A stretch of DNA of 64,000 nt from Actinomycetota bacterium (GTDB taxonomy: Bacteria; Actinomycetota; Coriobacteriia; Anaerosomatales; D1FN1-002): assembly GCA_037445995.1 (NCBI GenBank), contig JBBIJK010000003.1, forward strand, positions 15,460 through 79,459, in the 5' to 3' direction. This document shows positions 45,883 to 63,376 of the stretch, one piece after another. Within the stretch, counting starts at the first letter, position 1. Each line of letters starts with the position of its first letter. Position numbers and translations under genes: made by a program. The notes under the pieces are model-generated. The model made no database searches. It was given only the letters and a program-made list of their open reading frames with translations, and was not told where the DNA came from.

Positions 45883-46824
45883 TCACAGCTTCTCGGCCAC
45901 GCGCAGCTTCGCGCTGCGCGCGCGCTGGTTGGCCGCCACCTCCTCGACCGTCGGGACGATCGGCCTCCGGGTGACGACCCGGACCACCGGCACACGACCG
46001 CAACCACATCCGGGCAGGTCGGGCGGGCACTCGCAACCCGCGGACAGATCGTTGAAAACCCGCTTGACCAGCCGGTCCTCGAGCGAGTGGTAGCTGATCA
46101 CGGCGACCCTGCCACGTGGAGCCAGCCATCGCACGGCGGAGCGCAGGCCTCGCTCGAGCACCTCCAACTCGCGGTTCACCTCGATGCGCAGCGCCTGGAA
46201 CGTCCGTCGGGCGGGGTGAGGTCCCCCCCTCCTCGCCGACGCGGGGACCGCGTCCTTGACGATGCCCACCAGCTCCCCGGTCGTCTCGACGGGTCGGCGG
46301 GCGCGCGCGGCTACGATGAATGCTGCGATGCGCGCGGCCCACCGCTCCTCGCCGTACTCGCGGATGACGCGAGCGAGTTCATGCTCCTCGTAGCCGTTGA
46401 CGACGTCGTAGGCACTGAGGCGACCTGGCTCCGGGTCCATCCGCATGTCCAGCGGCGCGTCGTCCTGGAACGAGAAACCCCTGGATGCGAGGTCGAGCTG
46501 CGGGGACGACACGCCGAGGTCGAAGAGGAAGGCGTCGGCGTAGGGGATGTCGGCTTCAGCGAGAAGCCGGTCCAGTTCGCCGAAGTTGCCGTGAAGGAAG
46601 ATGGCATGCCGGCCGAGGCGTGCTACGTCTGCTGCTGCTTCGAGTGCTGCTCTGTCCTGGTCGATGCCCACGAGTATCCCCGCAGGCTGTATCGATTCCT
46701 GAAGACGGATCGCGTGACCTGCCCCGCCCAAGGTGCAGTCGATCACGATCGAGCCGGGGTGCAGGGATAGGTGCTGCGTGACCTCGGCCGGCAAAACTGG
46801 AGTGTGCCGGTATTCCATTGTCAA
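45883..46824 (-). CDS. rsmH: 16S rRNA (cytosine1402-N4)-methyltransferase RsmH (MraW)
   Basis: HTPVLPAEV and DCTLGGAGHA. Confidence 0.93.
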   Translation of the reverse strand: MTMEYRHTPVLPAEVTQHLSLHPGSIVIDCTLGGAGHAIRLQESIQPAGILVGIDQDRAALEAAADVARLGRHAIFLHGNFGELDRLLAEADIPYADAFLFDLGVSSPQLDLASRGFSFQDDAPLDMRMDPEPGRLSAYDVVNGYEEHELARVIREYGEERWAARIAAFIVAARARRPVETTGELVGIVKDAVPASARRGGPHPARRTFQALRIEVNRELEVLERGLRSAVRWLAPRGRVAVISYHSLEDRLVKRVFNDLSAGCECPPDLPGCGCGRVPVVRVVTRRPIVPTVEEVAANQRARSAKLRVAEKL

Positions 46825-47289
46825 TCAGCGCACCGGGGCGGGCTTCTCCCCCGGTCCCGACAGGCCGATGGCGGAAAGCGCCTCGGCATCGTCCTCGATG
46901 TTCGCGGTGGCCTCGTGGTTGTACGCCGCCCACCGCGCCGAATCCCATAGCTCCACGCGGTTGCCGTTGCCGACCACCGCCACCTCCCTGACCAGCCCGG
47001 CGTGGTCCCTCATCACCTGAGGCAGGGTGATCCTGCCGGCGCTGTCGACGTCGGTCTCCACGGCGTTGGTCGTGAAGAAGCGCCGGATCCTGCGCTGCTT
47101 GGGATCGAAGTCCGATCCCTCAAGCAGCTGATCGACGAACTCCCGGTAAGTCTCCTTGGGGTACACGTAGAGACACTCCTCGAGGCCCTTGGCGACGACC
47201 AGCTTCTCGCCGGCCACGGAGCGGAATCTCGAAGGCAGCGAGACGCGGCCCTTGGCGTCGAGGTTGTGCTTGTGTTCGCCGAGGAACAT
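46825..47289 (-). CDS. mraZ: Transcriptional regulator MraZ
   Basis: MFLGEHKHNLDAKGRVSLPSRFR and a second half with DSAGRITLPQVMR (two SpoVT/AbrB-like halves). Confidence 0.92.
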   Translation of the reverse strand: MFLGEHKHNLDAKGRVSLPSRFRSVAGEKLVVAKGLEECLYVYPKETYREFVDQLLEGSDFDPKQRRIRRFFTTNAVETDVDSAGRITLPQVMRDHAGLVREVAVVGNGNRVELWDSARWAAYNHEATANIEDDAEALSAIGLSGPGEKPAPVR

Positions 47290-47348
47290 CTCTGTGGCTC
47301 CCCCACCGTCGTGGGCCTCGGGGACGCCCTTCGCCCCCACCGAGGCAC

Positions 47349-47865: not shown

Positions 47866-48858
47866 ATGGGCACGCGCAGAGTCATCCTCCGATGGGCCGC
47901 GATCGTGGCGCTGGCATCCGGCTCACTGGGCCTTGCGGGCTGCGGCCTTCTCGCGCCTGCGGAGACCGCCACCGACATGGCGATCGACCGGTACTCGGCT
48001 CCCTACGGCACCCCTGAGGACCTCGCCGCAGGGCAAGCCAGCAAGGATCTCGCGCTCGTCGAACCGCCTGCGCCCTCCGGGGGCGGCCGCGACGTCGTCT
48101 CGATCCCAGGGGAGGTCAGCCTCGTCATCCTGAGCCAGAGCCTGCGAATGGAGGTCGCGTCGGTCCGGGAAGCGGTGGAATCGATCCGCAAGATCACCGC
48201 GGAGCACAAGGGCACCGTGACCGCGATGCAGGTCAGCACCGACAACGAGATGCCCATCTACAGGCAGGATGGCTCCGGCGCCTACGACGGCAGCCCGCTC
48301 GCCGGCTTCATGACCGTGCGGGTGCCCAACGCGTCCCTGCCCGCGTTCGTCGAAGCGGCCTCCGCGCTGGGCACGGTCCTGCGCCGCTCGCAGGACTCGC
48401 AGGACGTCACCCAGGAGCATGTCGACCTCGCAGCGCGGCTCGACAACCTTCGGGCGGCAGAGAAGCGCCTCCGCGAGTTCTTCGACTCCGCCAAGAAGGT
48501 CTCCGAGATGCTGGAGATCGAGCGCGAGCTGGCCCGGGTCCGTGGCGAGATCGAGTCCCTCGACGCCCAGAAGAAGTTCCTGGAGCGCCAGGCCGCGATG
48601 GCTACCGTCACCTTCGAGCTCGTGGAGCCCAAGCCGATCGTGCGGCCCGCCGGGGAGAACTGGGGCGTCGCCGAGGCCTTCACGGGCGCGATCAGGGCTT
48701 TCGTCAACACGGCGAACACGCTGATCGTCCTGCTGGGCCCGGTCGCGGCGGTAGCGTTGTTCGTGGCGCTTCCCGCCTGGCTCGTCGCGAGGTGGCTGCT
48801 TCGCAGGAGGTCCGCACGGTCGGCGCGGGCCTCAGAGTCCGCCGACGAAGAGGCCTGA
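47866..48858 (+). CDS. DUF4349-like lipoprotein with a C-terminal TM anchor
   Basis: Lipobox SLGLAGC, a central coiled coil (RLDNLRAAEKRLREFF...ELARVRGEIESLDAQKKFLE) and C-terminal TM helices. GGAGAAAGGGG lies before the ATG. Confidence 0.75.
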   Translation: MGTRRVILRWAAIVALASGSLGLAGCGLLAPAETATDMAIDRYSAPYGTPEDLAAGQASKDLALVEPPAPSGGGRDVVSIPGEVSLVILSQSLRMEVASVREAVESIRKITAEHKGTVTAMQVSTDNEMPIYRQDGSGAYDGSPLAGFMTVRVPNASLPAFVEAASALGTVLRRSQDSQDVTQEHVDLAARLDNLRAAEKRLREFFDSAKKVSEMLEIERELARVRGEIESLDAQKKFLERQAAMATVTFELVEPKPIVRPAGENWGVAEAFTGAIRAFVNTANTLIVLLGPVAAVALFVALPAWLVARWLLRRRSARSARASESADEEA

Positions 48859-48895: not shown

Positions 48896-49183
48896 TCAGG
48901 ACCCGGACCGGTGTCTGCGGCGCCGCTTGGCTCGCCAGGCGGCCGCCGCCGACCCGCCAGCCAGATGCACCGCGAACATCGCTCCGCCCGCAGCTGCGGG
49001 CAACATCAGCAGGTCGGTTCCGGGGTCGATCGATTCGAGACCGGGCGCGCCAGCGCCTCCGACCACGGTCAGCCACGATCCAAGAGCGACACCCGCGGCC
49101 ACCCCGACCCCCCAGGTCGCGGCCCGGAACAGTGCGCCGGACCAAGAGAAGCCGTCCCGGGGCTCGGGGCCTGACACGCTCAT
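48896..49183 (-). CDS. Candidate 95-aa two-TM membrane protein translationally coupled to xerD
   Basis: MSVSGPEPRDGFSWSGALFRAATWGVGVAAGVALGSWLTVVGG...LLMLPAAAGGAMFAVHLAGG...KRRRRHRSGS. The ATG overlaps the xerD TGA (ATGA). This is the C-terminal part of track ORF 48896..49660. Confidence 0.4.
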   Translation of the reverse strand: MSVSGPEPRDGFSWSGALFRAATWGVGVAAGVALGSWLTVVGGAGAPGLESIDPGTDLLMLPAAAGGAMFAVHLAGGSAAAAWRAKRRRRHRSGS

Positions 49184-50085
49184 CTCAGCCCGGCTCTGGG
49201 ATGCGTGGACAGGTACTCCTCGCGCATGTGGCGAAGGTCGACATGGGTGTAGACCTGCGTGGTGGAGATGTCGGAGTGCCCAAGCAGTTCCTGCAGCGCT
49301 CGCAGATCGGCTCCTCCCTGCAGCATGTGGGTGGCGTACGAGTGCCGGAGGACGTGCGGGTGCAGCTCCTCCAGACCGACACGGCTTCCCCACCTCCGGA
49401 CCAGCGCGTGGACGCTCTGCCTTGTGAGACGGCCGCCCCTCCGGTTCAGGAACACCGCTCCGGGGTCCTGCCGCAACGCCGCCCTGGCGCGCAGGGCGGG
49501 ACGACCTTGGGACAGGTACGCCCTGAGCGCCCGCTCGGCGGCCGCGCCCGTAGGGACGACCCTCTCCTTGCCACCCTTCCCGACCACCCGCATCAGGCTG
49601 TCCTCTAGGTCGAGGTCGGCGAGGTCGAGTGAGGTCAACTCGCTGACCCTCAAACCGCATCCGTACAGCACTTCGAGTATCGCGACGTCGCGTCGAGCTG
49701 TCGGCCCCTCGCCGAAAGACTGCGAGAAAAGACGGTCGGCCTCCGCGACGCTGATGACGTGCGGCAACCTCAACGGCACTTTGGGAGAAGCGAGCGAAGC
49801 CGCCGGGTGGCGCTCCGCCACGCCCTCGCGCACGAGGAACCTGTGAAACGACCTGATCGCGGCGACCTTGCGCTCGACGGTGCTCGCCGCCAGACCGCGC
49901 GACCGCAAGCTGGCGACGAACCCTGCGAGATGGTCGCGGTCGACCGCGGCCCAGCCGGTGACGCCGGTCGATTCCAGGTGGTCCGCATAGGCTCTGAGGT
50001 CGCGCCGGTAAGCCTCGACTGTGTTGACGGAGGCGCCCCTCTCGACAGCCAGGTGGCCCAGAAACTCATCGATGCGACCTCGCAT
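49180..50085 (-). CDS. xerD: Tyrosine recombinase XerD-type (chromosome dimer resolution)
   Basis: 301 aa, MRGRIDEFLGHLAVERGASVNTVEAYRRDL. Catalytic contexts are GLRVSEL, LRHSYATHML and GHSDISTTQVYTHV. Confidence 0.9.
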   Translation of the reverse strand: MRGRIDEFLGHLAVERGASVNTVEAYRRDLRAYADHLESTGVTGWAAVDRDHLAGFVASLRSRGLAASTVERKVAAIRSFHRFLVREGVAERHPAASLASPKVPLRLPHVISVAEADRLFSQSFGEGPTARRDVAILEVLYGCGLRVSELTSLDLADLDLEDSLMRVVGKGGKERVVPTGAAAERALRAYLSQGRPALRARAALRQDPGAVFLNRRGGRLTRQSVHALVRRWGSRVGLEELHPHVLRHSYATHMLQGGADLRALQELLGHSDISTTQVYTHVDLRHMREEYLSTHPRAGLR

Positions 50086-50111: not shown

Positions 50112-51224
50112 CTACAGAAGCTCCGACAGCGGCGTGTACTCCATCCCATGAGCCTCGGCGACGGGCGCGTACGTCACCTTCCCGTCGAGGACGTTGACGC
50201 CCTTGGCCAGTGCGGGGTCGTCGAGGACGGCCTGCCTCCAGCCCTTGTCCGCGATCGCGAGCGCGTAGCGGAAGGTGGCGTTCGTGAGAGCGTAGGTGGA
50301 GGTGTTGGGCACCGCGCCTGGCATGTTGGCGACTCCGTAGTGGACGACCCCGTCGATGACGAATGTGGGCTCGCTGTGGGTGGTCGGCCGCGTGGTCTCG
50401 ATGCAGCCTCCCTGGTCGACCGAGACGTCTACGACCACCGAGCCCTTCTTCATGCCCGGGAGCATGTCCCTGGTGACCAACCACGGCGCCTTCGCACCGG
50501 CCAGCAGCACCGCTCCGATGACGAGGTCCGCGTCGTAGACGGCGCGCTCGATGTTCAGCCGGTTGGAGAAGAGCGTCCTCATCCGATTGCCCCACAGCTC
50601 GTCGATGTAGCGAAGTCTCTCGAGGCTCACGTCCAGCACGGTGACGTTGGCCCCCATCCCCACCGCGATGTAGGCGGCGTTCATCCCTACCACGCCCGCG
50701 CCCAGCACGGCCACGTTGGCCGGAAGCACACCGGGCACGCCGCCCATCAGCATCCCTCGACCGCCCATCGGCTTGAGCAGGAACTCCGCGCCGACCTGGG
50801 TGGCCATGCGGCCCGCTACCTCCGACATCGGGGCGAGGAGCGGCAAGGAGCGGTCCGGCAGCTCGACCGTCTCGTACGCGATGCACACGGCCCCGGAACC
50901 CACGAGACCTTCGGTCTGCGGAAGATCGGGGGCGAGGTGCAGGTAGGTGAAGAGGATCTGCCCCGGGCGCATCATGGCGATCTCGGCCGCTTGCGGCTCC
51001 TTGACCTTGACCACCATCTCGGCGCGACCCCATATCTCCGCCGCGCTCTCGGCGATCGTCGCGCCCGCGGCTACGTACTCGTCGTCCTCGATCGAGGAAC
51101 CGGCTCCCGCCCCGCGCTCGACGAGGACCTCGTGCCCCCTCTCCACGAATTCGCGTGCTCCCCCTGGGGTCATGCCGACACGGTACTCACTGTTCTTGAT
51201 CTCCATGGGTACGCCGATGATCAT
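50112..51224 (-). CDS. ald: L-alanine dehydrogenase
   Basis: [20 protein letters not shown] and the NAD-binding motif [14 protein letters not shown]. The start overlaps the upstream stop (ATGA). Confidence 0.92.
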
Positions 51225-52339
51225 CGCTGCTCCTCCGTATAGGCGCCGCCGTCCCCGCAATGCGGGAGGTCAGAGAGAACCTCGCCGGCAGCCCGCCCCG
51301 CAGCGGCCGCGGCGAGGAAGAAACCGGGGTCCTCGTCCATGCCTCGTCCCATGGTACGCGGTTCTAGCCCCCTCGTGTCGAGCTCGCCGGGGGACACCTC
51401 TACGCGACGGCACTCATGGCGCCCGGCGATGCCCGCGGCATCCAGCGCACGGGCGACCTGTTCGGCTTCGTCGGCGCCCAGCGGCGGAACGGCCACAAGG
51501 CAGCCTGGGACGGCGACCCGGCCCAGGGCGGTCAGCGAGTGGTGGCTCACTCCGCGGTGACGCTCCCGGCCCTCGGCGAAGGAGACCCGCAGGACCGCTA
51601 TCGGCAAGCCCCTCAGGCAGGCGACCGCGTTCAGGGCCTCCCCCTGCGCGACTCCTCCGTGGCCGAACGGGGTGGCGGTCCCTGCGAGTCCAGGGCCTCC
51701 CGCGACCACCGCGACGTCCGCTCCGGCGACATGCCTGGCCGCCAGCAACCCGGAGTGCAGCGTCACAGCCTCGATCTCGCCGCCGAAGGCCTGACCGCAG
51801 CTGACGGTCGCGTCGATCAGCCCCGCGCGCCTGGCGTCCCGGACCGCGTCCGACAGAGCCAGCGGAAGAGCGGCATGATCGGTCATCACGTACGCGATGC
51901 GGGCCTTGGGGGCTGCCGTCCGCACCCCCGCCGCGACCGGGACCATCTGGCTGTGAAGACCGCAGCACACCACCGGCATCCCGCCGAGGTCCGAGACGAC
52001 GGCCATCACGTCCTCATGCCCGCTCCCCGCCTCCTCGACGCAGAGCACGTCCAACTGCAGCGGGGTGTACCGGGCCTTGATGACGTGACCGCCCGAGGGG
52101 CGATCGTGCCCTCCCGCCCCCTCCGATCGCGCCACCACGAAGTGCAGCCCGCCGGTCCCCAGGCCCAGATCGACCGCCGTCGTGTTGACCAGCACCCGGT
52201 CGCCGGGCGCGCACGCACCGGTCAGGCGCGGGTAGCAACCGGCCTCGCCTGTGGCTCCGTCATCGAAGCGCACGGTCAGGCGATGTAAGCCCTCGTCGTG
52301 GCCGCGGACGGAGGTGACCTCACACCACACCGACCTCAT
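51221..52339 (-). CDS. Uncharacterised protein, DUF3866-like
   Basis: 372 aa, [29 protein letters not shown] and later [16 protein letters not shown]. The family assignment is from memory of DUF3866-type sequences and has not been searched. Confidence 0.65.
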
Positions 52340-52340
52340 C

Positions 52341-53453
52341 TCACACGACCGCCATGCGCACGATGTTGCAGGTCACCTGGGCGAGCCGCTCGAGCTCGTC
52401 GACCGCGATGCTCTCCTCCGTGCCATGCACCGCCGTCATGCCGGATGCGAGCACGATCGTCGGCACTCCCAAGGCGGCGATGATGTTGCCGTCGCTGCCT
52501 CCGCCCGTGGAGAAGGTGCGAGACTCGACGCCGGCCGCCTCACACGCGGCGATAGCGATGCGCACGACCTCGTCCTCGGGGTCCAGCCGGAACCCCGCGT
52601 ACTCGCGGGCCCAGGCGACCTCGACGCTTCCGCCGCCGGCCGCCGCGGCCCGGTCGAGCGCGGCCCCGATGGCGACCCGCACCTCCTCGACACGCGAGTT
52701 GTCGAGCGAGCGGCACTCTCCAGTGATCTTGGCGGAGGCGGCGACCACGTTGGTGGCCACACCCCCCTCGATGGTGCCGATGTTGGATGTGGTCGCGTCG
52801 TCGAGGCGCCCCATGGGCATCGCCGCGATCGCCCGCGCGGCCATGCCTATGGCCGAAGCCCCGGCCTCGGGCTCCACGCCCGCATGCGCAGCCCGGCCGC
52901 GGAAGGTCGCCTCGAAGGTGTAGTGCGTGGGGGACCCGATGACGATGCCCCCCACCGGGCCGCCGGCGTCCAGGACCACCGCGAGGTCGCCGCGCACGTC
53001 GGATGACTCCAGCGCCTTGGCGCCGCGAAGCCCGACCTCCTCCTGCACGGTCAGCAGCACGCGGACCCCGGCGTACGGGCCCGGTTCCTCCCTCAACCGC
53101 CGCACGGCCTCTACGATCGCGGCTATCCCGGCCTTGTCGTCGGCCCCGAGGACCGTCTGGCCAGCCGAGCGCACGCGCCCGTCTTGCACGAGGGGCTCGA
53201 CGCCCTCGCAGGGCTGCACGCAGTCCATGTGCGCCGAGAGGATGACGCACCGCCCGGAACCCGACCCGGGCATCTCGGCGACGAGGTTGCCTGTGTCCGA
53301 GCCTGTCGCGGCCGCGGATGAGTCGTAGCGCACATCCATCCCAAGATCGGCGAGGAGCCCTGCGCACCGGCGCGCCAGCGCGCCCTCGCGCCCCGACGGG
53401 CTGTCGATCCGCACCATCTCCAGGAAGGTGTCCAGAAGCCTCTGGGTGCTCAT
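52341..53453 (-). CDS. M20-family metallopeptidase (peptidase T / tripeptidase-like)
   Basis: FLEMVRIDSPSGRE, SAHMDCV, LGADDKAGIAAIVEA, QEEVGLRGA and GGSDGN motifs. Confidence 0.85.
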   Translation of the reverse strand: MSTQRLLDTFLEMVRIDSPSGREGALARRCAGLLADLGMDVRYDSSAAATGSDTGNLVAEMPGSGSGRCVILSAHMDCVQPCEGVEPLVQDGRVRSAGQTVLGADDKAGIAAIVEAVRRLREEPGPYAGVRVLLTVQEEVGLRGAKALESSDVRGDLAVVLDAGGPVGGIVIGSPTHYTFEATFRGRAAHAGVEPEAGASAIGMAARAIAAMPMGRLDDATTSNIGTIEGGVATNVVAASAKITGECRSLDNSRVEEVRVAIGAALDRAAAAGGGSVEVAWAREYAGFRLDPEDEVVRIAIAACEAAGVESRTFSTGGGSDGNIIAALGVPTIVLASGMTAVHGTEESIAVDELERLAQVTCNIVRMAVV

Positions 53454-53471: not shown

Positions 53472-55085
53472 CTAGCCGGAGCGACCGCGTCTGCGCGCGA
53501 CGGCGGCACCGACGAAGTCGCGGAACAGCGGCGCGGGCCTTGTCGGCCTGCTCTTGAACTCCGGATGGCCCTGGTTGCCCACGAACCACGGATGCGAGGG
53601 AAGCTCGACCATCTCCACCAAGCGGCCGTCCGGAGAGGCGCCCGACACCACGAGGCCGGCGTCGACCAGGGCCTCCCGGTAGTTGTTGTTCACCTCGTAG
53701 CGGTGCCGATGCCTCTCCTCTATGGTGGCTTGGCCGTAGGCGTCCCAACCCTTCGTCCCCTCGACGACGGCGCAGGGATACGAGCCGAGCCTCATCGTCC
53801 CGCCCATCTCCTCGCTGCCGTCGTGGAGCGGCATCAGGTCGATGACCGGGTGGGGCGTGTCGGGGTCGAACTCGCTCGAGTTGGCGCCCTCCAGTCCGGC
53901 GACGTGTCGCGCGAACTCGCAGACCGCCACCTGCATGCCCAGGCAGATGCCGAGGTACGGGACACCGTTCTCGCGGGCGAACCGGGCCGCCCGGATCTTG
54001 CCTTCGATACCGCGCACGCCGAACCCGCCGGGGACCAGGATCCCGTCCATCCCGGAGAGCGCCTGCTCGACCTCCTCGGGGGTCAGCGCCTCGGCGTCGA
54101 CCCAGTGGACGTTGACCTTGTGGTCGTGGTGGATACCGGCGTGGTCGAGGGCCTCGTTCACGGAAAGGTACGCGTCGGGCAGTTGGACGTACTTACCCAC
54201 GAGCGCGATCTCCACCGTGTCGGCCAGGGACGCGGAGTGAGCGACGAACCTCTCCCACTCCTCCATGTCCACGGGGCCGCACTCGAGCTTCAGGCGTTCG
54301 ATGACCATCTCGTCCAGCCCCTGCTCGCGAAGCCTGAGCGGCACCTCGTAGATCGAGCGCGCGTCCTGTGCGGACACGACAGCCTTGGGGTCCACGTCGC
54401 AAAACAGGCCGATCTTGCGGCGGATGCCGGCGTCTATGGGCCTGTCCGAACGGCATACGATGAAATCCGGCTGGATGCCGATGCTCCGCAGCTCCTTGAC
54501 CGAGTGCTGGGTCGGCTTGGTCTTCAGCTCCTCAGAGGCGGCGATCCACGGCACGAGCGTCACGTGGATGTAGCAGACCGCGTCGTGGCCGACGTCCTTG
54601 CGGATCTGGCGGATCGTCTCAAGGAACGGCAGAGACTCGATGTCTCCGACGGTACCGCCGACCTCCGTGATGACCACGTCGGGGGCGCCGTCCTCGGCCA
54701 GTCGGCGGATCCGCTCCTTGATCTCGTTGGTGACGTGAGGGATGACCTGCACAGTCGCTCCGAGGAAATCGCCGCGGCGTTCGCGCGTGACTATGGAGTG
54801 GTAGATGGACCCGGCGGTCACGTTGCAGTCGCGGGTCAGGGACTCGTCGATGAAGCGCTCGTAGTGACCCAGGTCCAGGTCGGTCTCCCCGCCGTCGTCG
54901 GTGACGAACACCTCGCCGTGCTGGAAGGGTGACATCGTTCCGGGGTCGACGTTGAGGTAGGGGTCAAGCTTCTGGATCTTGACCTTGAGCCCGCGGGCCT
55001 TGAGCAGACGGCCGAGAGACGCTGCGGTGATCCCCTTGCCGAGCGAGCTGACGACCCCACCCGTCACGAAGATGTGCTTGGCCAT
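53472..55085 (-). CDS. pyrG: CTP synthase
   Basis: [18 protein letters not shown] and the GATase motif YLGICLGMQ. Confidence 0.96.
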
Positions 55086-55128
55086 CTGTGCGCCCACGCC
55101 TCCTGTCCCTTGGTCGGTCCCTGTCGCA

Positions 55129-56094
55129 TCATACCTTTACCTCGGCGTCGTGAGGGACGCCCGCCGAGTCGATGGCGCGAAGCAGGCGGTTGCGCTCGAT
55201 CAGCGCGCTGAACGACACGCGCTCGGCAGCCAGGTTCATCGCGACGACGAGGGCAGCGAAGACCGCGAGCCAGAGCAGCGGGAGGGACAGCGCGACGAAG
55301 TAGCCGGCCAGCGCGCCCGCCGCGTTGGCCCCCGCGTCGCCCAGCATGGCTCGGCGCCTCGCGTCCAGCCCCCAGGACGCCGCCGCGGGGCCGACGAGGA
55401 TCAGGGCCAGCGACAGCGCCGCGACCACGGCCGTCGCCGGTGACGGCCACGCCTGCCGGGGGTCCAACGCCAGAGCGACGCATGCGAGCGCCGACAGCGC
55501 CACATACCCCTTCAGCGCTCTGCACGGCCTCAGGTCGAGCAGGTTGACGAGGTTCGCGGCGCCAGCCGTGGACGCAGCCGCCAGCGACCATGTCAGTGTC
55601 ACGGCGAGCGCTCCGGTCCCGTTGTCGAACGCCAGCGAGGACGTCTGGACGACGGCCAGGGCGACAAGGCCCGCAAGCTTCAAGGTGCCGGTGGTGAGCT
55701 CCCCCCGGGCCAGCGCGCCGAGGTGCCCTCGCAGGCCGCGCGAACCCGTGTCGCCGAAGGCGTCGTCCAGCAGCCCCAGGGCGAACGCGCCCACGACGAG
55801 GAAGAGCGGTGACGCGAAGACCGGCGCGACGGCGGCCGCGAGCAGCGGTCCGACAAGCGGGTCGTCCGCCGCCATGGCCGCCTCCGTCGTACCCCACACG
55901 GCAGCGAGGGTCGCGATGCACACAGCCCACGTCATCCACGCCACACCCAGCGCCCTGACCACGGGCTCGCCACGCCAGTTGGGGACGGTCAGGCCGCGTG
56001 AGGCAAGAGCGCGCACGAGCGCGCCGGCGACCAACCATGGGACGAGCCACGAGGCGGCCGCCTCCAGCGCGAGCCAGACCGCTGCGATCGTCAC
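55129..56094 (-). CDS. Divergent MraY/WecA-superfamily (GT4-type polyprenyl-phosphate sugar-phosphate transferase-like) membrane protein
   Basis: [10 protein letters not shown] and [14 protein letters not shown] resemble superfamily motifs, but the NxxNxxDGxDGL loop reads [14 protein letters not shown]. The GTG at 56094 overlaps the upstream stop (GTGA). The N-terminal 357 codons of track ORF 55129..57165 are rejected. Confidence 0.6.
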
Positions 56095-57233
56095 CCCTCG
56101 CCCACCTCGCCTCCGCCGCTGGCCGCCACCAGCACCGCGCACGCCGCGAACAGCGCGAACAGCGCGGGGATAACCAGCCCCGAGTCCTCCACCAGGAGGG
56201 CCACGGGCATCGCCCACAGCAGACCGTCCAGAGCGGGCCGAAGCTCCGGCCGGAAGCGGAAGGCTCGCCGCATCGTGGGACCCGGCCTCATCCTCGCACG
56301 CAACAGCAGCGCGATGCCCGCGATGGGCACGAGCGACAACGGGGAGTATGTCAGGATGCTCCAGGAGGTCGCGAACCGCCCTGTGAGCGTGGCGGCGACA
56401 GACCCGGCGTCGCCCGAGGCGAGCGCGGCGAAGAACACCCCGATGTGGGTGGGCTCGGCCGAGCGCGAGTCCAGCCAGCCCAGGAGCGCGGCGAGGACCG
56501 TCGCCACGGCTGCGCTCCCCAAGGCGACAGCCCACCCGACGCGCAGACCCGACCGGCGCGTGAGGTAGACGCCGAGCCCCACGCCCCCCCACACCAGGGC
56601 GCCGAGGTTGGCCCCGAGTCCGGGCCAGGCGGCGATGAGAAGCGCGGCGGCTATCGCGATCCCGGCGACGGGCGCGCGCGAACGGCCAGCTCCTCCGCTG
56701 GCCGTCAGCGCGACACCGAGGAGCGCCCAAGCGAACGCGGCGGCCGCCGTCTCGTTGCCAAGACCGTACAGACGCATCCCCGCTGAGGGGTCGTATCCGA
56801 GCAGCGTGCGGGGGAACAGCGCGGCGCTCCACGGGAGTGCGAGCATCACGCCGGTCGCTGCGGCCCCCATCAGCAGCCCCATGACCCTCGCAGCCCGGTC
56901 TGGCCCGCCCCGGGTGGTGACCCACAGCACGACCGACCCCGCGACGATCGCCACCGTCGCGGCGGACACCGCTGCGGGCTCCGCGCCGAAGGGCACCAGA
57001 GCGGCCGGTGCCATCACGCCGAGAGGGATGCAGGCCAACGCGCGCGACAACTTGGGCGCCGACGGTCCGCGACCCGCGACAGCGAGCCACGCGGCGACGG
57101 CCACGGCGATGCCGCACGCGACCGTGAGCCCCATGAAGAACGGCCACCGGACCCGGGCCACCCACTCGGCCGGATCTGAAGCGAGCGCCGAGGCGGCGGA
57201 CAGACCCATGATCGTTGCCTCGACCGAGGACAT
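56091..57233 (-). CDS. Polytopic membrane protein of unknown function
   Basis: About 380 aa, A/G/L-rich, with at least 9 hydrophobic segments by eye. It contains MRLYGLGNETAAAAF and no motif that I recognise. It is coupled to the downstream MraY-like gene. Confidence 0.55.
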   Translation of the reverse strand: MSSVEATIMGLSAASALASDPAEWVARVRWPFFMGLTVACGIAVAVAAWLAVAGRGPSAPKLSRALACIPLGVMAPAALVPFGAEPAAVSAATVAIVAGSVVLWVTTRGGPDRAARVMGLLMGAAATGVMLALPWSAALFPRTLLGYDPSAGMRLYGLGNETAAAAFAWALLGVALTASGGAGRSRAPVAGIAIAAALLIAAWPGLGANLGALVWGGVGLGVYLTRRSGLRVGWAVALGSAAVATVLAALLGWLDSRSAEPTHIGVFFAALASGDAGSVAATLTGRFATSWSILTYSPLSLVPIAGIALLLRARMRPGPTMRRAFRFRPELRPALDGLLWAMPVALLVEDSGLVIPALFALFAACAVLVAASGGGEVGEG

Positions 57234-57401
57234 ATGCCAGTCTCCTGCGTGCGCGTCGGCGTGTCGCTGGCGGGGAACCGGCGCGGATGGCGGTCTCACG
57301 ACCGCGGCGAGCAGCGCCCGTGCGCAGTATATCGCAGGGCGGGCAGGCGGCTGACGTCGCGCCCGGGAACGCGCCGCCCTCGGCTACAATCGGTGCCGGC
57401 A

Positions 57402-59069
57402 GTGAAGCCCGCGATCCGGGGGTGCAGCATCAGCGGTCCATCCATCGCCCGCTCCACGGCCACGATGTCGATAGCCACGGCCCTGTCGCGCGTCACGGGC
57501 TTCATCCGCATGTGGGCGACCGCCTACGCGCTGGGTGCGACGGTGATGGCCAGCGCCTTCGGTGTGGCGAACAACGTCCCGAACATGATCTACGAGCTGG
57601 TCGCGGGCGGCATAATCTCGTCGCTGTTCATCCCGACCCTCATGGAGGTCAGGACGCGCGAGGGCGAGCAGGCCGCGTTCCTCTTCGCCAGCAGGCTGTT
57701 CAACCTCGCCGTCGTCACCCTGGGTGTGATCGCCGTCTTGGGCGCGGTGTGGCCCGGGCCGTTCATCTGGACGCAGACGTTCAGGTTGTCCGCAGGGGAT
57801 GCCGCCGGGGTACGGCCCTTGGCCGAGGCGTTCTTCGCGTTCTTCGCCGTGAAAGTGGTCCTCTACGGAGCTGGATCGGTCATCTCGGGTCTTCTCAGCT
57901 CCGAGCGCAAGTACCTGTGGGTGGCGCTGGGCCCGGTCTTCAACAACCTCGTCGCGATCGCCGCGCTCTACGCGTACACGGCGCTGTGGCAGCGCGACGA
58001 GCGGCTCGCGTTCACGGTGCTGGCGCTCGGGACGACTCTGGGTGTCGCGGTCATGTACGCGGTCCAGATCCCGTCTCTGGTCCGAAGCGGGTTCCGCTAC
58101 TCCTTCGGCTTCTCGCTGAGAGACCCGGGCATACGCCGGATGGCGAAGCTGGCGATCCCGACGATCGTGTACGTCGCGACGAACATGGCGGCCGTCTCCT
58201 TCCGCAACTCGTCGGCGTTCGCCGTCTCCCCCGAGGGTCCGGCGCAACTCATGTACGCGTGGACGTTCTACCAACTCCCCTACGGGATACTCGCCGTCTC
58301 GCTGACCACGGCCCTGTTCACCGAGCTGTCAGACGCCGCCGGACGCGCCGATTGGGACGCGTTCAGGCGCGACGTGTCAAGGGGGATGCGAAGCACCGCG
58401 GTACTCATCTTGCCGATGGCCGCGATGCTGGTCGCGCTGGCCACGCCACTCGTGGGCCTGTACCAGGTGGGGCGCTTCGACGCCGGGTCGGTCGCACCCG
58501 TGGCCTCCGCGTTGCGTTGGTGGGGGCTGACGCTTGTCTTCTTCGCGACCACCATGTTCCTTCTGCGCACGTTCTACTCGCTCAAGGACACGCGGACCCC
58601 CATGGCGGTGAACTTGGTCCTCACCACCGTGCAGATCGGCCTGTACACGGTGCTGAGCACCGGTCTTGGGAGCTGGGCGGGGCTCGGGCTGGACGGGCTG
58701 CCGATCGCGGACGCGGTGTTCTTCGCTCTGTCGGCGCTGGTGCTGACTGTGCTCCTGAAAAGACGGGTCGGTGACTGGGGGTTCGGCGGCGTGACCCTGA
58801 CGTACGGCAAGACGCTCATCGCGTCTGCTGCCGGCGGGCTGGTGGCCTGGGCTGTCGCCGGCGCCCTCACAGGCGCGGCCGCGGGACCGGCTGGCTCCCT
58901 GCTGCAGACTGCTGCCGGAGGCACCGCGGGTCTCGCGGTCGCCTACGCGCTGTCGGCCGCGATGCGTGTCCCGGAGTTGGACTCGATGCGGCGGCTGGTC
59001 GCAGCGAGGTTCGGGTCCCGTCGCCTGCCCGCGGTGCCCGATCTACCGGCGGAGGACCCGGATGAGTGA
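57402..59069 (+). CDS. murJ: MurJ/MviN-family lipid-linked-glycan flippase
   Basis: SIATALSRVTGFIRMWATAYALGATVMASAFGVANNVPNMIYELVAGG is a typical MurJ N-terminus. The start is uncertain: GTG 57402 or ATG 57465. Confidence 0.85.
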   Translation: MKPAIRGCSISGPSIARSTATMSIATALSRVTGFIRMWATAYALGATVMASAFGVANNVPNMIYELVAGGIISSLFIPTLMEVRTREGEQAAFLFASRLFNLAVVTLGVIAVLGAVWPGPFIWTQTFRLSAGDAAGVRPLAEAFFAFFAVKVVLYGAGSVISGLLSSERKYLWVALGPVFNNLVAIAALYAYTALWQRDERLAFTVLALGTTLGVAVMYAVQIPSLVRSGFRYSFGFSLRDPGIRRMAKLAIPTIVYVATNMAAVSFRNSSAFAVSPEGPAQLMYAWTFYQLPYGILAVSLTTALFTELSDAAGRADWDAFRRDVSRGMRSTAVLILPMAAMLVALATPLVGLYQVGRFDAGSVAPVASALRWWGLTLVFFATTMFLLRTFYSLKDTRTPMAVNLVLTTVQIGLYTVLSTGLGSWAGLGLDGLPIADAVFFALSALVLTVLLKRRVGDWGFGGVTLTYGKTLIASAAGGLVAWAVAGALTGAAAGPAGSLLQTAAGGTAGLAVAYALSAAMRVPELDSMRRLVAARFGSRRLPAVPDLPAEDPDE

Positions 59070-59748
59070 CCCCGGGGTCACTGTGCTGATCCCGGCGCGA
59101 AACGAGTCGGACCGGATAGCGCAGACGATCGCCGCGTGCCGGGAGATCCCCGGGGTGCGGACGGTCATCGTCAGCGACGACGCCTCCGTCGACGACACCG
59201 CGCGCGCGGCCGCCGAAGCCGGCGCCACCGTCGTGTCGCTCGAGCGAAGAAGCGGCAAAGGTCAGGCACTGAACGCGGCGCTGGCGGTCGCGAAGGACCA
59301 ATACGACGTCCTGCTGCTGCTCGATGCCGACATCGGCGTCAGCGCCATCCACGCCCGCGACCTGGTGTCGGCCGTGCGCGCCGCCACGGCGGACCTGGCC
59401 GTCGCGGTCCTCCCTCCGCCACCCGGCCGCGGAGGCCTCGGGACCGTGGTGGGTCTGGCCCGGTGGGCGATACACCGCATGACCGGCTTCCGGCCAAGGG
59501 CGCCGCTCTCCGGTCAGCGCGCCCTTTCCTCAGCGGCTGTCGAGCGCCTCACCCCGTTCGAACGCGGGTACGGCGTGGAGGTCGCCATGACAGTGCGCGC
59601 CCTGCGCGCTGGGTTGCGGGTCGTGGAGGTCGACGTCCCCATGTCGCACAGGTACACCGCCCGCGACCTGCCCGGTTTCGGGCATCGCGGTAAGCAGCTG
59701 CTGCATGTGGCCGTGACGCTCGCCCGCCTCCTGCTGGAGAGACGCTAG
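59062..59748 (+). CDS. Family 2 glycosyltransferase
   Basis: VTVLIPARNESDRI, VSDDASVDDT and LLLDADIG. The start overlaps the murJ 3' end by 8 nt. Confidence 0.8.
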   Translation: MSDPGVTVLIPARNESDRIAQTIAACREIPGVRTVIVSDDASVDDTARAAAEAGATVVSLERRSGKGQALNAALAVAKDQYDVLLLLDADIGVSAIHARDLVSAVRAATADLAVAVLPPPPGRGGLGTVVGLARWAIHRMTGFRPRAPLSGQRALSSAAVERLTPFERGYGVEVAMTVRALRAGLRVVEVDVPMSHRYTARDLPGFGHRGKQLLHVAVTLARLLLERR

Positions 59749-60611
59749 CGTCGGATCTCCGGGAAGCGGGCGGAGGCTCCCTCGCCGACTCCGAAGTAGC
59801 CCGTCACGCCGCGCGCGAGGATCCAGACCACGGACAGCGCCCCCTCGGGCCGGTCCGCGTGGTCCACTCCTGACAGCCCCGCGGCCACCAGGGCGTCTAC
59901 AGCCCCGGTCTCCTGCCCGGTGACCTCAGCCCCGAGCACGGGGAGACCCGCCTCCGCGGCCGCCCTGGCGATCGCCAGGGCGAAGGGCTCGGTCGTGACT
60001 TCCTCGGACGCGACGACCACGATGCCGCTGACAGCCGCCCCTTCCGTCAACGCGCGGGCGCCGATCCCCCCCGCGGCGTCCAGGGCTCGTGTCAGCGGCA
60101 TGACGCCGGTCCCCTCCCACTCGGCCACCAGCGCGACGGCCACGCGCTCCGGCAGCGCACCCACGGTCGAGGGAACCGAACCGGACGTCGCGCTCCGGAG
60201 CGCCGGGGCGATCGCATCCCGGACCGCGCCGTCGTCGAGCGCGGCACCGGGCTTCCGGATGGTGACCAACACCGGCGTTCCGCCCGCGGCGCTCACGGCC
60301 GCCTGGACAGCGGCTGCGGCATCGGTGCGGCCCGTGGCGGCGACCACCGCCACCGTCCGGCCCTCCAGCTCTCCGGCCACCACGTAGTCGATGGTCTGCC
60401 TCGCAAGGGTGCGAGCCGACTCCGCCTCGTCGCGCAGTCCAGCGTTCGCGTCGGAGAGCTGGGCGAACTCCCCTCTGAGGCTCTCCACGAGCGTGCGCTT
60501 CTGCGCGTCGAGCACGCCGCGCTCCACGACGACGGTCCCGAGCACCAGGCCCACGGCCAGCGCCAGGAAGACAGACACCAGCGAGGCGATGTGGTATCGC
60601 AGGTTGTACAA
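59745..60611 (-). CDS. steB: SteB / MctB-family (so-called copper transporter family) bitopic protein
   Basis: (L)YNLRYHIASLVSVFLALAVGLVLG N-terminus typical of the family. I chose the TTG at 60611 because GGGAGGG lies 8 nt upstream. The track ORF extends to 60644. Confidence 0.7.
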   Translation of the reverse strand: MYNLRYHIASLVSVFLALAVGLVLGTVVVERGVLDAQKRTLVESLRGEFAQLSDANAGLRDEAESARTLARQTIDYVVAGELEGRTVAVVAATGRTDAAAAVQAAVSAAGGTPVLVTIRKPGAALDDGAVRDAIAPALRSATSGSVPSTVGALPERVAVALVAEWEGTGVMPLTRALDAAGGIGARALTEGAAVSGIVVVASEEVTTEPFALAIARAAAEAGLPVLGAEVTGQETGAVDALVAAGLSGVDHADRPEGALSVVWILARGVTGYFGVGEGASARFPEIRR

Positions 60612-60628
60612 GCCGCCAGCCCTCCCGC

Positions 60629-61750
60629 TTAGACGCCCACCCACGCCCGCAAGCGTAGCAGCACGAGCCCCAGCATCGCACGGACGTCGTTGGAGATGAA
60701 CACGATCACCGCGAACACGGCCAGCGCCGCGAGCACGATCAGCACGAGGTCACGCGGGCCGGGCGACGAGCGGTAAAGCTTGTTCACTCCCTTGGCGTCC
60801 ACCAGCCGCTGTCCCACCTTGAGCCTGACAAGGAACGTCGAGGCCATGCCCTTGCGGTTCTTGTCCATCATCTCATGCAGGTTGACGTGAGTCCCGACCG
60901 CGACGATCAGATCCGCGCCGGACTCGTACGCCAACAGCAGAGCGAGGTCCTCGCTGGTCCCCGCCGACGCCCACGATCCGCCGTCCAGGCCCAGCGCGTC
61001 CAACCGCTCCCTGCCCGGGCACCGGCCGTCCGGGTACGCGTGGACGATGAGTTCGGCTCCGCTCCGAAGCGCTTCGTCCGAGACGGAGTCCATGTCGCCG
61101 ATGATGACGTCCGGGGCGAATCCTGCCTCCAGCAAAGCGTCCGCTCCGCCGTCCACTCCGATCAGGACCGGGCGGACCTCCCTGACATAGGGCACGAGCG
61201 CCCGCAGGTCCTCGCGATAGTCGTGGCCGCGCACGACGACCAGGACGTGCCTGCCCGCGATATGCACGCGGGTGACCGGCACGTCGGCTCCTTCGGTCAG
61301 AAGGGACTTCTCCCTTTCGAGAAACTCGATGGTGTTGCGCGCGAACGCGTCCAGGCTCTCCCCCACGCCCTCGCGAGCCTGCTCCATGGCTGACTCGATG
61401 CTCTCGACGGTCAGCACCTGACCGGTGGCGACACGCTCCCGGCCGAGCCAGACGACGCCGGCGTCCACCACGACCTCGTCGCCGTCGCGCAGCCGTTCGA
61501 AGACCGCCGGACCCGCCGCGTCAACGAGCCTCACCCCCGCTCTGGCCAGGATCAACGCCCCGAGCGCCGGATACGCCCCGCTGAGCGAGCTCGCGGCGTT
61601 GACGACGACTTCGACGCCGGATGCGACCAGCGCCTCGGCGGTCACGCGGTCGATGTCCTCGTGGTCGATGACGGCGACGTCGTCGGCCCCGAGCCTCCTG
61701 ACCAGGTCCTTGGTACGTCTGCCGAGGCGAGCCGTGCCCTGATACCTCAT
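60629..61750 (-). CDS. steA: Putative cytokinetic-ring-associated protein SteA
   Basis: GTARLGRRTKDLVRRLGADDVAVIDHEDIDRVTAEALV...VVNAASSLSGAYP, with a C-terminal TM segment. It shows the conserved recN-steA-steB-...-pyrG neighbourhood of Actinobacteria. Confidence 0.8.
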   Translation of the reverse strand: MRYQGTARLGRRTKDLVRRLGADDVAVIDHEDIDRVTAEALVASGVEVVVNAASSLSGAYPALGALILARAGVRLVDAAGPAVFERLRDGDEVVVDAGVVWLGRERVATGQVLTVESIESAMEQAREGVGESLDAFARNTIEFLEREKSLLTEGADVPVTRVHIAGRHVLVVVRGHDYREDLRALVPYVREVRPVLIGVDGGADALLEAGFAPDVIIGDMDSVSDEALRSGAELIVHAYPDGRCPGRERLDALGLDGGSWASAGTSEDLALLLAYESGADLIVAVGTHVNLHEMMDKNRKGMASTFLVRLKVGQRLVDAKGVNKLYRSSPGPRDLVLIVLAALAVFAVIVFISNDVRAMLGLVLLRLRAWVGV

Positions 61751-63375
61751 CGCCCGCTCGCTCTCTGTGCGCCGTCCAGCAACTCCCGGGCGTGGACCAT
61801 CACGGCCTCGGAGTCCCCGCCCGACAGCATCCTGGCTATCTCGGACACCCGCTCGAGCCCCTCCACCGCCCGCACCGTCGTGAACGAGCGGCCGTCGCGC
61901 TGCTCCTTGGCGACGACAAGCTGGCGGTCGGCGTACGCGGCGACCTGCGCGAGGTGCGTGACCACGAGGACCTGCCGCTGCCCGGCCAGTGCCGCGAGCC
62001 TCCTCCCCACCGCGTGGGCCGTCGCTCCGCCGATACCTGCGTCGACCTCGTCAAAGACCAGCACCCCAGGCCCGCCGTCCCGGCCCAGCACGCCCTTGAG
62101 CGCCAGCATCACGCGCGAGACCTCGCCTCCCGACGCGATCTTGGCCAGCGGTCTGGGCGCCTCGCCCTCGCTGCCGCTGAACAGGAATTCGACCCCGCCT
62201 GGACCCTCCGGCCCCCACCTGTCCGGTGAGGGGTCCTCGAACAGGACGTCGAAGCGGGCCGCGGGCATGCCGAGGTCGGCGGCGGCGAGGGCCAGGTCCT
62301 CGAAGAAGCCGGGAACCGCCGTTCGCCTCCGCTCGATCAGCGCCCGCCCGCACCTGTCAAGTTCCGCTTTGGCCGTGCCTACGGCCCGCGCCGCCTCCTC
62401 AGGACCTGAGGCGTCTCCACTGAGTGAGCTCACGAGAGCGGCCGCCTCCGCCCTTCTCGCGATCACCTCCGACAGGGTGGGTCCGTACGCCCGCTTGAGG
62501 CGGTACAGGGCGTCCAGACGCGTCTCGGCCGCGTCGAGGTCCCCGGGATCGCAGTGCGCTGCCTCCGCCCGGGCCGCGACCTCTCTGGCCAGCTCCGAGA
62601 GCACGGCCGAGGACTCCGAGACCCTGTCGGCGAGTTCGTCGAGGGCGGGGTCGAGCGCGCGGGCACGCGACAGCGACGCGGCAGCCTCGGCCACCCCGTC
62701 CTCGGCCCCATGGTCTCCACGGAGAAGGTCCCGGGCATGCGACAGGATCTCGGCGAGCCGGTCGGCGTTGCGCATCGCGGGAAGACGTCGCTCCAGGACC
62801 TCGTCCTCGGCCTCGGCGGGAGCCACCGCGTCGATGTCGGCGACGATCCGCTTGGCCTCCTCCAGATGACGCCGCGCCTCCTCCGCGTCTCCGGCGAGCG
62901 CCTCGGCGCGAACCAGCGCCTCGCGATACGCGGCGTAGGCGACCGCGTACTCCCGGCGCTCGGACTCCGCTTTGGCGTACCGGTCCAGGTGGAGCGCGTG
63001 ACCCGAGGGAAACAGGAGCGACTGGTGCTCATGCTGGCCGTGGAGGTCGACCAGCGGACCCAGCGCCTGCTCGAGGGCGCCTACGGTGACCATCTCGTCC
63101 CCCAGGACGCAGCGGGACCTCCCCTGCGCGCTCACCCGGCGTTTGGCGATCAGGTCCGGCCCGTCCGTCGAGAAGCGCCCCTCGACCACGGCTTCGGCTG
63201 CTCCCGCTCTCACGAGGCCGGCGTCCGCCCGCTCGCCCACAAGGAGCTGCAGCGCCTCCACCAGAGCCGTCTTCCCGGCGCCTGTCTCGCCGGTCAGGGC
63301 GGTCATGCCAGGACCGAACTCGAGCCACACGTCCTCGATCAGCGCGAGGTCCCTGACGTGCAGCTCCTCCAGCAC
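61747..63375 (-). CDS. recN: DNA repair protein RecN
   Basis: VLEELHVRDLALIEDVWLEFGPGMTALTGETGAGKT. The GTG at 63375 lies 1 nt after the nadK TGA. Confidence 0.92.
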   Translation of the reverse strand: MLEELHVRDLALIEDVWLEFGPGMTALTGETGAGKTALVEALQLLVGERADAGLVRAGAAEAVVEGRFSTDGPDLIAKRRVSAQGRSRCVLGDEMVTVGALEQALGPLVDLHGQHEHQSLLFPSGHALHLDRYAKAESERREYAVAYAAYREALVRAEALAGDAEEARRHLEEAKRIVADIDAVAPAEAEDEVLERRLPAMRNADRLAEILSHARDLLRGDHGAEDGVAEAAASLSRARALDPALDELADRVSESSAVLSELAREVAARAEAAHCDPGDLDAAETRLDALYRLKRAYGPTLSEVIARRAEAAALVSSLSGDASGPEEAARAVGTAKAELDRCGRALIERRRTAVPGFFEDLALAAADLGMPAARFDVLFEDPSPDRWGPEGPGGVEFLFSGSEGEAPRPLAKIASGGEVSRVMLALKGVLGRDGGPGVLVFDEVDAGIGGATAHAVGRRLAALAGQRQVLVVTHLAQVAAYADRQLVVAKEQRDGRSFTTVRAVEGLERVSEIARMLSGGDSEAVMVHARELLDGAQRASGR

Positions 63376-63376
63376 G

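Follow-up and report, generated by a model that had tools for sequence, protein, structure and literature searches.

The closest described counterparts of the locus analyzed here are the SteA-SteB system of Mycobacteriales, which forms a complex at the septum and activates the peptidoglycan hydrolase RipA (PMC12977500), and a five-gene cluster of C. difficile, CDR20291_1053-1057, that has been reported as essential (PMC12157513). The steAB genes are conserved in Actinobacteria and, in Clostridia, lie downstream of spo0A (PMC12977500). Knock-down of the C. difficile cluster yields short, swollen, chaining cells, and its gene 1057, an orthologue of the DUF3866 family (PF12982), has itself been reported as essential on rich medium (PMC12157513). 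That essential-gene paper was the only one retrieved when the literature was searched for PF12982 and the C. difficile locus tags, and the SteAB papers in the literature searched make no mention of GT2 or GT4 glycosyltransferases, M20 or DUF3866.

Here, we analyzed a 64-kb stretch of contig JBBIJK010000003.1 from an Actinomycetota bacterium of the Coriobacteriia (hereafter, the window), in which a DUF3866 gene is packed between the genes for a PepT-like M20 metallohydrolase and an L-alanine dehydrogenase (ald). We find that the evolutionarily stable unit is not this M20-DUF3866-ald trio, but a TIGR01883-type M20 gene followed by DUF3866 and a Nudix gene of the YffH/AdpP type, and that this unit usually ends a SteA-SteB-GT2-GT4 cluster. 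In the lineage of the window, pyrG has been inserted before the unit, the Nudix gene is absent, and ald, both in the window and in close genomes, sits in the slot held by Nudix elsewhere. The window locus itself is an ordinary, locally rearranged member of a known but uncharacterized family and cluster.

The M20, DUF3866 and ald genes of the window

All coordinates refer to positions in the whole window, and all genes of the chain described here are on the minus strand. M20, DUF3866 and ald are three intact genes within a co-directional chain of eight genes (8.3 kb), joined by short or overlapping junctions in the order membrane protein, GT4-like, pyrG, M20, DUF3866, ald, xerD and small membrane open reading frame (ORF). 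The M20 gene (52341-53453; 370 amino acids, aa) starts 18 nucleotides (nt) after pyrG, with a GAGG preceding its ATG, and is separated from the DUF3866 gene (51221-52339; 372 aa) by 1 nt. DUF3866 in turn overlaps ald (50112-51224; 370 aa) in an ATGA, the start of ald being the ATG at 51224, with a GGAGGAG Shine-Dalgarno sequence 6 nt 5' of it, and not the TTG further upstream at 51260. A gap of 26 nt leads from ald to xerD. No terminator-like site was found within the eight-gene chain, in a promoter and terminator scan that was uninformative overall, with terminators at chance level and 0 promoter-like sites. The gene order recurs in 80 related species genomes and is therefore not due to chance.

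A preliminary description of this DNA had reported the three genes and a co-directional series from pyrG to the small membrane ORF. We confirmed its coordinates, its 18-nt, 1-nt, ATGA and 26-nt junctions and its gene order; the six genes it named are real members of the chain but only the last six, as the membrane protein and GT4-like genes precede pyrG. It had also called the middle gene DUF3866-like, which is borne out by a match over the full PF12982 model (384.1 bits, E = 6.7e-115, profile positions 2-318 of 318; gathering threshold 25 bits), and the 17-residue motif it quoted is present in the protein.

The window M20 protein carries the Peptidase_M20 and M20_dimer domains and matches TIGR01883 over nearly its entire length (339.6 bits, cutoff 274.25; model positions 1-360 of 361). 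This PepT-like model, which we take to represent the B. subtilis YqjE type, is a "hypoth_equivalog" that is not tied to a demonstrated substrate, whereas true PepT models score the window protein far under their cutoff (123 vs. 255 bits). Residues H75, D77, D105, E138, E139, D162 and H343 are invariant in 23 orthologues adjoining DUF3866 and are kept in the window; presumably, they correspond to the metal ligands and catalytic residues of PepT (clan MH). A deacylase role (ArgE/DapE-like) would be as compatible with the protein as a peptidase role. The ald product scores 520 bits against the TIGR00518 equivalog (cutoff 391.85) and has both AlaDh_PNT domains (PF05222 and PF01262).

Gene neighbors of DUF3866 in near and distant relatives

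Two sets of loci were compared. The close set (L001-L080) comprises 80 Coriobacteriia-like loci with 52-66% identity, identified by a scan of one genome per GTDB species; it is limited to near relatives, its search patterns having been derived from a shallow alignment. Counts for this set were obtained by coverage-filtered tblastn with the window proteins, as a simple gene caller fails on many high-GC loci. The diverse set contains 80 loci from a metagenome scan based on a diverse alignment (39-88% identity to an Armatimonadota member), together with L081-L084, and nine exact-protein look-ups supplied further loci of the family. Neighbors in the diverse loci were labeled by hidden Markov model (HMM). 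Since a first, iterated HMM labeling over-called both Nudix (181) and Ald (125), we used an NCBIfam/Pfam check and a coverage-filtered tblastn recount.

Of 74 assessable loci in the close set, 61 have M20 as the gene immediately preceding DUF3866, with gaps mostly between -4 and +6 nt, and another 12 have pyrG in this position, without M20. In L056 (Coriobacteriaceae bacterium EMTCatB1), no M20 gene separates pyrG from DUF3866. On the other side, ald directly follows DUF3866 in 58 of 77 loci and xerD does so, without ald, in 11 of 77; 76 of the 80 loci contain xerD. The DUF3866-ald gap in these relatives is mostly 16-190 nt, which makes the ATGA overlap of the window atypical for its clade.

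The diverse set gives a different picture of the downstream partner. In 39 of 73 loci, the gene that directly follows DUF3866, in the same orientation, is a Nudix gene; all 39 match the NudE model and 38 of them match TIGR00052 (YffH/AdpP; NDP-sugar/ADP-ribose type), making this type of Nudix the commonest immediate downstream partner in other lineages. Directly upstream, HMM labeling placed M20 in 25 of 78 loci and GT4 in 21 of 78, and each of the 23 M20 neighbors tested belongs to TIGR01883. By the stricter tblastn (L081-L166), M20 occurs anywhere at the locus in 26, Nudix in 49 and ald in 2 of 86 loci. Within six genes of DUF3866, 82 diverse loci contain SteA in 23, xerD in 19, pyrG in 2 and ald in 2 cases. 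To the same effect, when 161 DUF3866 sequences were grouped at ~50% identity, 9 of the 18 resulting clusters showed adjacency to M20 and 13 to Nudix, but only one, the window's own, to ald. As a separate observation, ald is found directly upstream of xerD in three separate DUF3866 clades (L114, L147 and L002-L080).

The recurrent pairing of M20 with DUF3866 is thereby shown, and this part of the association proposed in the preliminary description stands (61/74 close loci, 9/18 clusters), whereas the part concerning ald is confined to the window clade. Its remark that, in related Actinobacteria, genes such as NUDIX and ald usually occupy the pyrG-xerD interval agrees with our counts as far as NUDIX is concerned, the window being a case in which that gene is missing.

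These counts bear directly on the role it had proposed, in the catabolism of peptides, alanine or D/L-amino acids. In a unit of this kind, M20 would free alanine from small peptides, DUF3866 would perform an intermediate step such as racemization or epimerization, and Ald would deaminate L-alanine to pyruvate. The tight junctions in the window (1 nt and the ATGA overlap), the recurrence of the M20-DUF3866 pair and the position of ald in three quarters of the close loci speak for such a unit. However, ald adjacency is limited to a single clade of the 18, ald is all but missing from the diverse loci, and the gap that usually separates it from DUF3866 in relatives indicates that the two genes are not coupled. 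In L114 and L147, moreover, ald adjoins xerD and is split from DUF3866 by Nudix and other genes, so that xerD, and not DUF3866, may be the conserved neighbor of ald. Elsewhere, DUF3866 is most often partnered by Nudix, glycosyltransferases and amino-sugar enzymes, not by enzymes of amino-acid catabolism, and essentiality of the C. difficile orthologue on rich medium would be unexpected for a catabolic accessory gene. With a wider context made up of cell-envelope and amino-sugar or nucleotide-sugar genes, a role in alanine breakdown is quite unlikely, and the catabolic model keeps some slight plausibility for the window clade only. In our best guess, held with moderate-to-low confidence and set out below, ald is a lineage-specific addition.

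M20 and DUF3866 also keep company outside the SteA cluster: about 10 M20-bearing loci lack that cluster, and in several of them start and stop codons overlap, which favors a functional module over mere inherited order. DUF3866 is, in addition, found fused to enzyme domains. One protein (P0177, 548 aa; L167, 584-2230) joins DUF3866 to Nudix, and at least 13 clusters contain DUF3866-DUF952 fusions, including those of Litorihabitans, Serinibacter and Miniimonas and related sequences, a small group of Micrococcales (e.g., L083, 9001-10530). DUF952 is a Tpt1-like member of the ADP-ribosyltransferase clan (PMC8120803, PMC7955679).

Amino-sugar enzymes form a further group of neighbors. Six loci encode, upstream of M20, a double-SIS protein of ~346 aa that is closest to the GlmS isomerase domain and NagB-II; in one locus, its gene directly precedes DUF3866. 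Locus L111 (774-5788) presents a SIS-M20-DUF3866-Nudix-NagA array, its NagA scoring 332 bits against TIGR00221 (cutoff 226). L112 (4052-8032) and L113 run from a PseC/DegT-like sugar aminotransferase through a GFO/IDH/MocA oxidoreductase to DUF3866 and then Nudix, and the L112 oxidoreductase resembles uridine diphosphate (UDP)-N-acetylglucosamine 3-dehydrogenase. Of all the data, the compact, operon-like arrays of L111 and L112 hint most clearly at amino-sugar or nucleotide-sugar chemistry. Armatimonadota-like loci have xylose-isomerase-like TIM-barrel genes nearby.

The DUF3866 protein

A phmmer search against 1.84 billion representatives placed the family at 1555 clusters at 50% identity, and over 7000 clusters were retrieved at the 90% level, with members in Clostridia, Coriobacteriia, Micrococcales, Armatimonadota-like bacteria and others. 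The protein is essentially single-domain and ~360 aa long, and C. difficile CDR20291_1057 is of similar size and has the identical invariant motifs. The family motifs are NTTA..LGTGG, KLRYTPLQ, LHS, YxMTD, GQAFGG..E, GPGxxGT and RxSFAD.R.RH.G.SHH. Judged over 64 sequences from Coriobacteriia, Clostridia and Micrococcales, invariant residues that are present in the window protein include K88, R90, Y91, P93, Q95, H129, S130 and D154, as well as G186, G187, G215, G217, R251, R258, R260, H261, S265 and H266.

In line with the preliminary description, which had assigned the protein to a domain family of no known function, DUF3866 has no characterized homologue in Pfam, NCBIfam, the PDB (by sequence or profile), two Foldseek searches or the literature. 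There is no NCBIfam model for the protein, phmmer found no homologue in the PDB, and a profile built from 50 diverse members gave a single, spurious match of 24 residues in the PDB (E = 3.5). Nor does any second Pfam family recur among 50 members at E values up to 10.

We generated two AlphaFold2 models, with predicted local distance difference test (pLDDT) scores of 85.5 and 89.3, the better of which was based on 64 sequences from three phyla and had a predicted template modeling (TM) score of 0.89. The predicted fold consists of an N-terminal beta-barrel of ~75 residues followed by an alpha/beta domain of strand-helix repeats. Searches of both models against 350,542 PDB chains with Foldseek returned no match at E < 1e-3. 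For the barrel, the resemblance is to eIF1A/OB-type barrels (target-normalized TM 0.5-0.6), and the alpha/beta domain is nearest to SIMIBI-class nucleoside triphosphatases (NTPases), namely MipZ, ParF, ParA, Ffh/FtsY, MeaB, the CTP-synthase N-domain and BioD. For these, the best E value was 2.4e-3 (range 2e-3 to 6e-2) at probabilities of 0.8-0.99; the superpositions cover ~250-290 columns with a target-normalized TM of at most 0.51, a query-normalized TM of ~0.3 and a root-mean-square deviation (rmsd) of 7-20 Å.

This likeness raises an alternative in which DUF3866 would be no metabolic enzyme but, as a degenerate ParA/MinD/MipZ-like protein devoid of its former P-loop, would serve cell division or chromosome segregation together with SteAB and XerD. 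The identity of the best structural neighbors (MipZ, ParF and ParA, with the highest probabilities and TM values given above) is consistent with it, as are the constant proximity of xerD (76 of 80 close genomes, an overlap with DUF3866 in L168, a gap of 2 nt in L154) and of the septal SteAB genes, and the division and shape phenotypes of the C. difficile knock-down. However, none of the matches reaches an E value below 1e-3, and the Walker A motif GxxxxGK[S/T] is absent: the corresponding strand-loop-helix reads VVCCGLHSQ in the window and xxLHSxL in the family, with neither a Gly-rich loop nor a Lys, so that DUF3866 is not a member of the SIMIBI P-loop NTPase class. It differs from that class further in showing no sequence-profile similarity and in possessing the extra OB-like N-terminal barrel. 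The ~30 polar residues that are invariant, among them a cluster of His, Arg, Asp and Glu, have the look of an active site, the fusion partners Nudix and DUF952 are enzyme domains, and many loci pair DUF3866 with sugar-metabolic genes and have no division genes nearby. We consider a ParA-like role very unlikely.

Two other resemblances were discarded. Faint matches to muconate-lactonizing and dipeptide-epimerase enzymes of the enolase superfamily, which would have favored the catabolic unit discussed above, were rejected as noise because of their low probability (0.13-0.25); with a TM of ~0.2 and an rmsd of ~20 Å, the capping domain plus TIM barrel of that superfamily is not matched. The likening of GPGxxGT to the PGGxGTxxE motif of LOG/SLOG proteins was dropped as unsupported, no LOG/SLOG structure being among the top 50 Foldseek matches.

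The invariant residues are mostly of basic or metal-binding types and are positioned after strands. Their arrangement in the models may be that of an active site accepting an anionic substrate, for instance a phosphate or a nucleotide.

The envelope cluster and its comparison with described systems

In the Firmicute loci L081 and L082, SteA, MctB/SteB, GT2, GT4 and DUF3866 are co-directional and DUF3866 is the last gene of the cluster, an order identical to that of CDR20291_1053-1057. In Tepidibacter, a Nudix gene, a 205-aa membrane protein gene and XerD come after DUF3866, and recN, spoIVB and spo0A come before the cluster. The position of Firmicute DUF3866 is, accordingly, the one described for clostridial steAB downstream of spo0A.

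All five families are represented at the window locus. The SteA homologue (60629-61750, minus strand; TPK_catalytic, PF04263, and SteA-like_C, PF12555) is 45-49% identical to Firmicute SteA and is followed by a SteB/MctB homologue (59745-60644, minus; PF11382, E = 1.4e-27). The GT2 glycosyltransferase (59077-59748, plus; PF00535, E = 2e-17) is an orthologue of the L082 and L081 GT2 proteins (36-38% identity); it begins 8 nt after a MurJ-family lipid-linked-glycan flippase gene (57234-59069, plus; PF03023, E = 2e-76) that diverges from the chain. The GT4-like gene (55129-56094, minus, with a GTG start at 56094) encodes a membrane glycosyl-phosphate transferase of the MraY/WecA type; it is PF00953-like, having no Pfam match of its own but being 26-27% identical (E = 6e-21 and 7e-14) to the PF00953-carrying GT4 genes of L082 and L081. 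What the window does not have is the contiguous, co-directional five-gene order.

The block is opened by RecN (61747-63456, minus; SMC_N), upstream of which lies an NAD kinase C-terminal domain (63377-63982). Within the chain, the first gene (56091-57233, minus) encodes a polytopic membrane protein of ~380 aa that has no Pfam match and is not assigned to a family, possibly a GT-C or ligase-like enzyme acting in the envelope pathway as well. The gene accounts for a strong positive AT skew at 55500-57000, and at its position relatives have an ORF of ~700-750 aa according to rough gene calls. A GTGA overlap couples it translationally to the GT4-like gene, and 31 nt separate the end of the latter from the CTP synthase gene pyrG (53472-55097, minus; TIGR00337, 835 bits; NF003792, 860 bits). 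The xerD-type gene encodes a tyrosine recombinase of the XerC/XerD family (49180-50085, minus; NF001399, 335 bits) that falls slightly below the XerD and XerC equivalog cutoffs (XerD model, 326.6 vs. 329.6 bits), and it overlaps the final gene of the chain, the small membrane ORF (48896-49183, minus; 95 aa; no Pfam match or family assignment), in an ATGA. Directly beyond, a DUF4349 lipoprotein gene (47866-48858, plus) converges on the chain, followed by the start of the division/cell-wall (dcw) cluster with mraZ (46825-47340, minus) and rsmH/mraW (45883-46824, minus). Division and envelope genes are thus plentiful throughout the window.

This neighborhood suggests a possible functional tie between SteAB and DUF3866. 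The reading that we prefer, tentatively and at a little under an even chance, is that DUF3866 is an enzyme whose substrate is a phosphorylated or nucleotide-linked intermediate, probably an amino sugar, that is tied to the neighboring envelope-glycan genes, with M20 and Nudix acting on related steps. DUF3866 would be a soluble cytoplasmic enzyme with a Rossmann/SIMIBI-like domain devoid of a P-loop, and the Lys, Arg, His, Asp and Glu that are invariant and sit where its strands end C-terminally would bind the substrate, most probably an (N-acyl)amino-sugar phosphate or a nucleoside diphosphate (NDP)-amino-sugar. This compound might feed, or be recycled from, a polyprenyl-phosphate-linked envelope glycan made by the products of the GT4, GT2 and MurJ genes. 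M20, acting as deacylase or peptidase, would cleave an acyl or aminoacyl group off the intermediate of DUF3866 or off the next one, and Nudix, where present, would split a nucleotide-sugar. In the window clade, Ald could be merely co-expressed, or could dispose of or supply L-alanine.

Several points weigh against this proposal. The functional argument for DUF3866 is guilt by association throughout, with no biochemical or structural homologue to fix the chemistry, and gene 1057 itself was outside the CRISPR interference targets in C. difficile (PMC12157513). Genes in the metagenomic loci were called with our own simple caller; the stricter tblastn found M20 directly upstream in 17 of 68 loci (L081-L166), which is lower than the HMM count, and the amino-sugar neighbors (SIS, NagA and aminotransferase) are known from about 10 loci only. 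The YffH/AdpP-type Nudix is missing from all 64 kb of the window and, in the 80 close genomes, from the stretch within 6 kb of DUF3866. In Micrococcales (Cellulomonas, Serinibacter and Litorihabitans; L083, L165 and L166), DUF3866 is monocistronic and lies between hisG and a divergent pafB-pafC (WYL) regulator pair; M20, Nudix and glycosyltransferase genes are all missing from its vicinity, a setting entirely unlike that of other family members. In L168, pyrG, DUF3866 and xerD stand alone, DUF3866 overlapping xerD. Finally, much of the adjacency in Firmicutes and Coriobacteriia could be inherited synteny of the recN...xerD backbone and not operon logic.

The last point can be extended to an alternative without any shared function, in which a nadK-recN-steAB...pyrG...xerD super-block of housekeeping genes has been inherited as such, the unrelated genes M20, DUF3866, ald and Nudix have been packed into it, and the short junctions reflect genome compaction only. 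The backbone is common to Firmicutes and Coriobacteriia and, presumably, to the mycobacterial Rv1696-Rv1701 block; pyrG and xerD share the chain despite their unrelated functions; lineages exist that dispense with M20, with ald or with Nudix; and the solitary DUF3866 of Micrococcales also fits. Against this stand the M20-DUF3866(-Nudix) arrangements outside the backbone, in Armatimonadota-like and other high-GC loci without SteA, pyrG or xerD, often with overlapping codons, as well as the DUF3866-Nudix fusion protein and the restriction of the M20 partner to one orthologous subfamily. On balance, inherited synteny appears unlikely as the full explanation.

Returning to the enzyme reading, its bolder form would have DUF3866 found a new enzyme family that catalyzes an essential, unrecognized step on a nucleotide- or phospho-amino-sugar, together with M20 and Nudix, in a widely conserved Gram-positive SteA-SteB-GT2-GT4-MurJ envelope-glycoconjugate pathway. 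We regard this as rather unlikely as it stands; if true, such a pathway would link precursor supply to SteAB-controlled cell separation. The family, more than the window locus, is a worthwhile experimental target, and the map of its partnerships (M20 upstream, Nudix downstream or fused, SteAB-GT2-GT4 and amino-sugar enzymes) yields testable hypotheses. In the literature searched, we found no description of the M20-DUF3866-Nudix module, of its attachment to SteAB-GT2-GT4, or of DUF3866 as a protein without a structural relative.

Set beside the described systems, the window is a locally rearranged copy of the conserved, ancient Gram-positive recN-steA-steB...xerD block. Compared with the C. difficile cluster, pyrG and M20 are interposed between GT4 and DUF3866, and a membrane protein gene, placed before GT4, also interrupts the five-gene order. 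Compared with the SteA-SteB-GT2-GT4 order of Firmicutes, GT2 is inverted behind MurJ and lies on the strand opposite to SteA/SteB and GT4, indicating a local inversion, and the Nudix that follows DUF3866 in most Firmicutes is replaced by ald. Compared with SteA-SteB of Mycobacteriales (Rv1697-Rv1698/MctB), the window orthologues lie 8 kb upstream, in the same recN...pyrG...xerD block. The M. tuberculosis version of this block, which we take to run from Rv1696 (recN) to Rv1701 (xerD) in the order steA-mctB-pyrG-Nudix-xerD, is not known to contain GT2, GT4 or DUF3866. Together, these comparisons suggest that the SteAB system, studied so far in Mycobacteriales only, has glycosyltransferase and DUF3866 partners in other Gram-positives.

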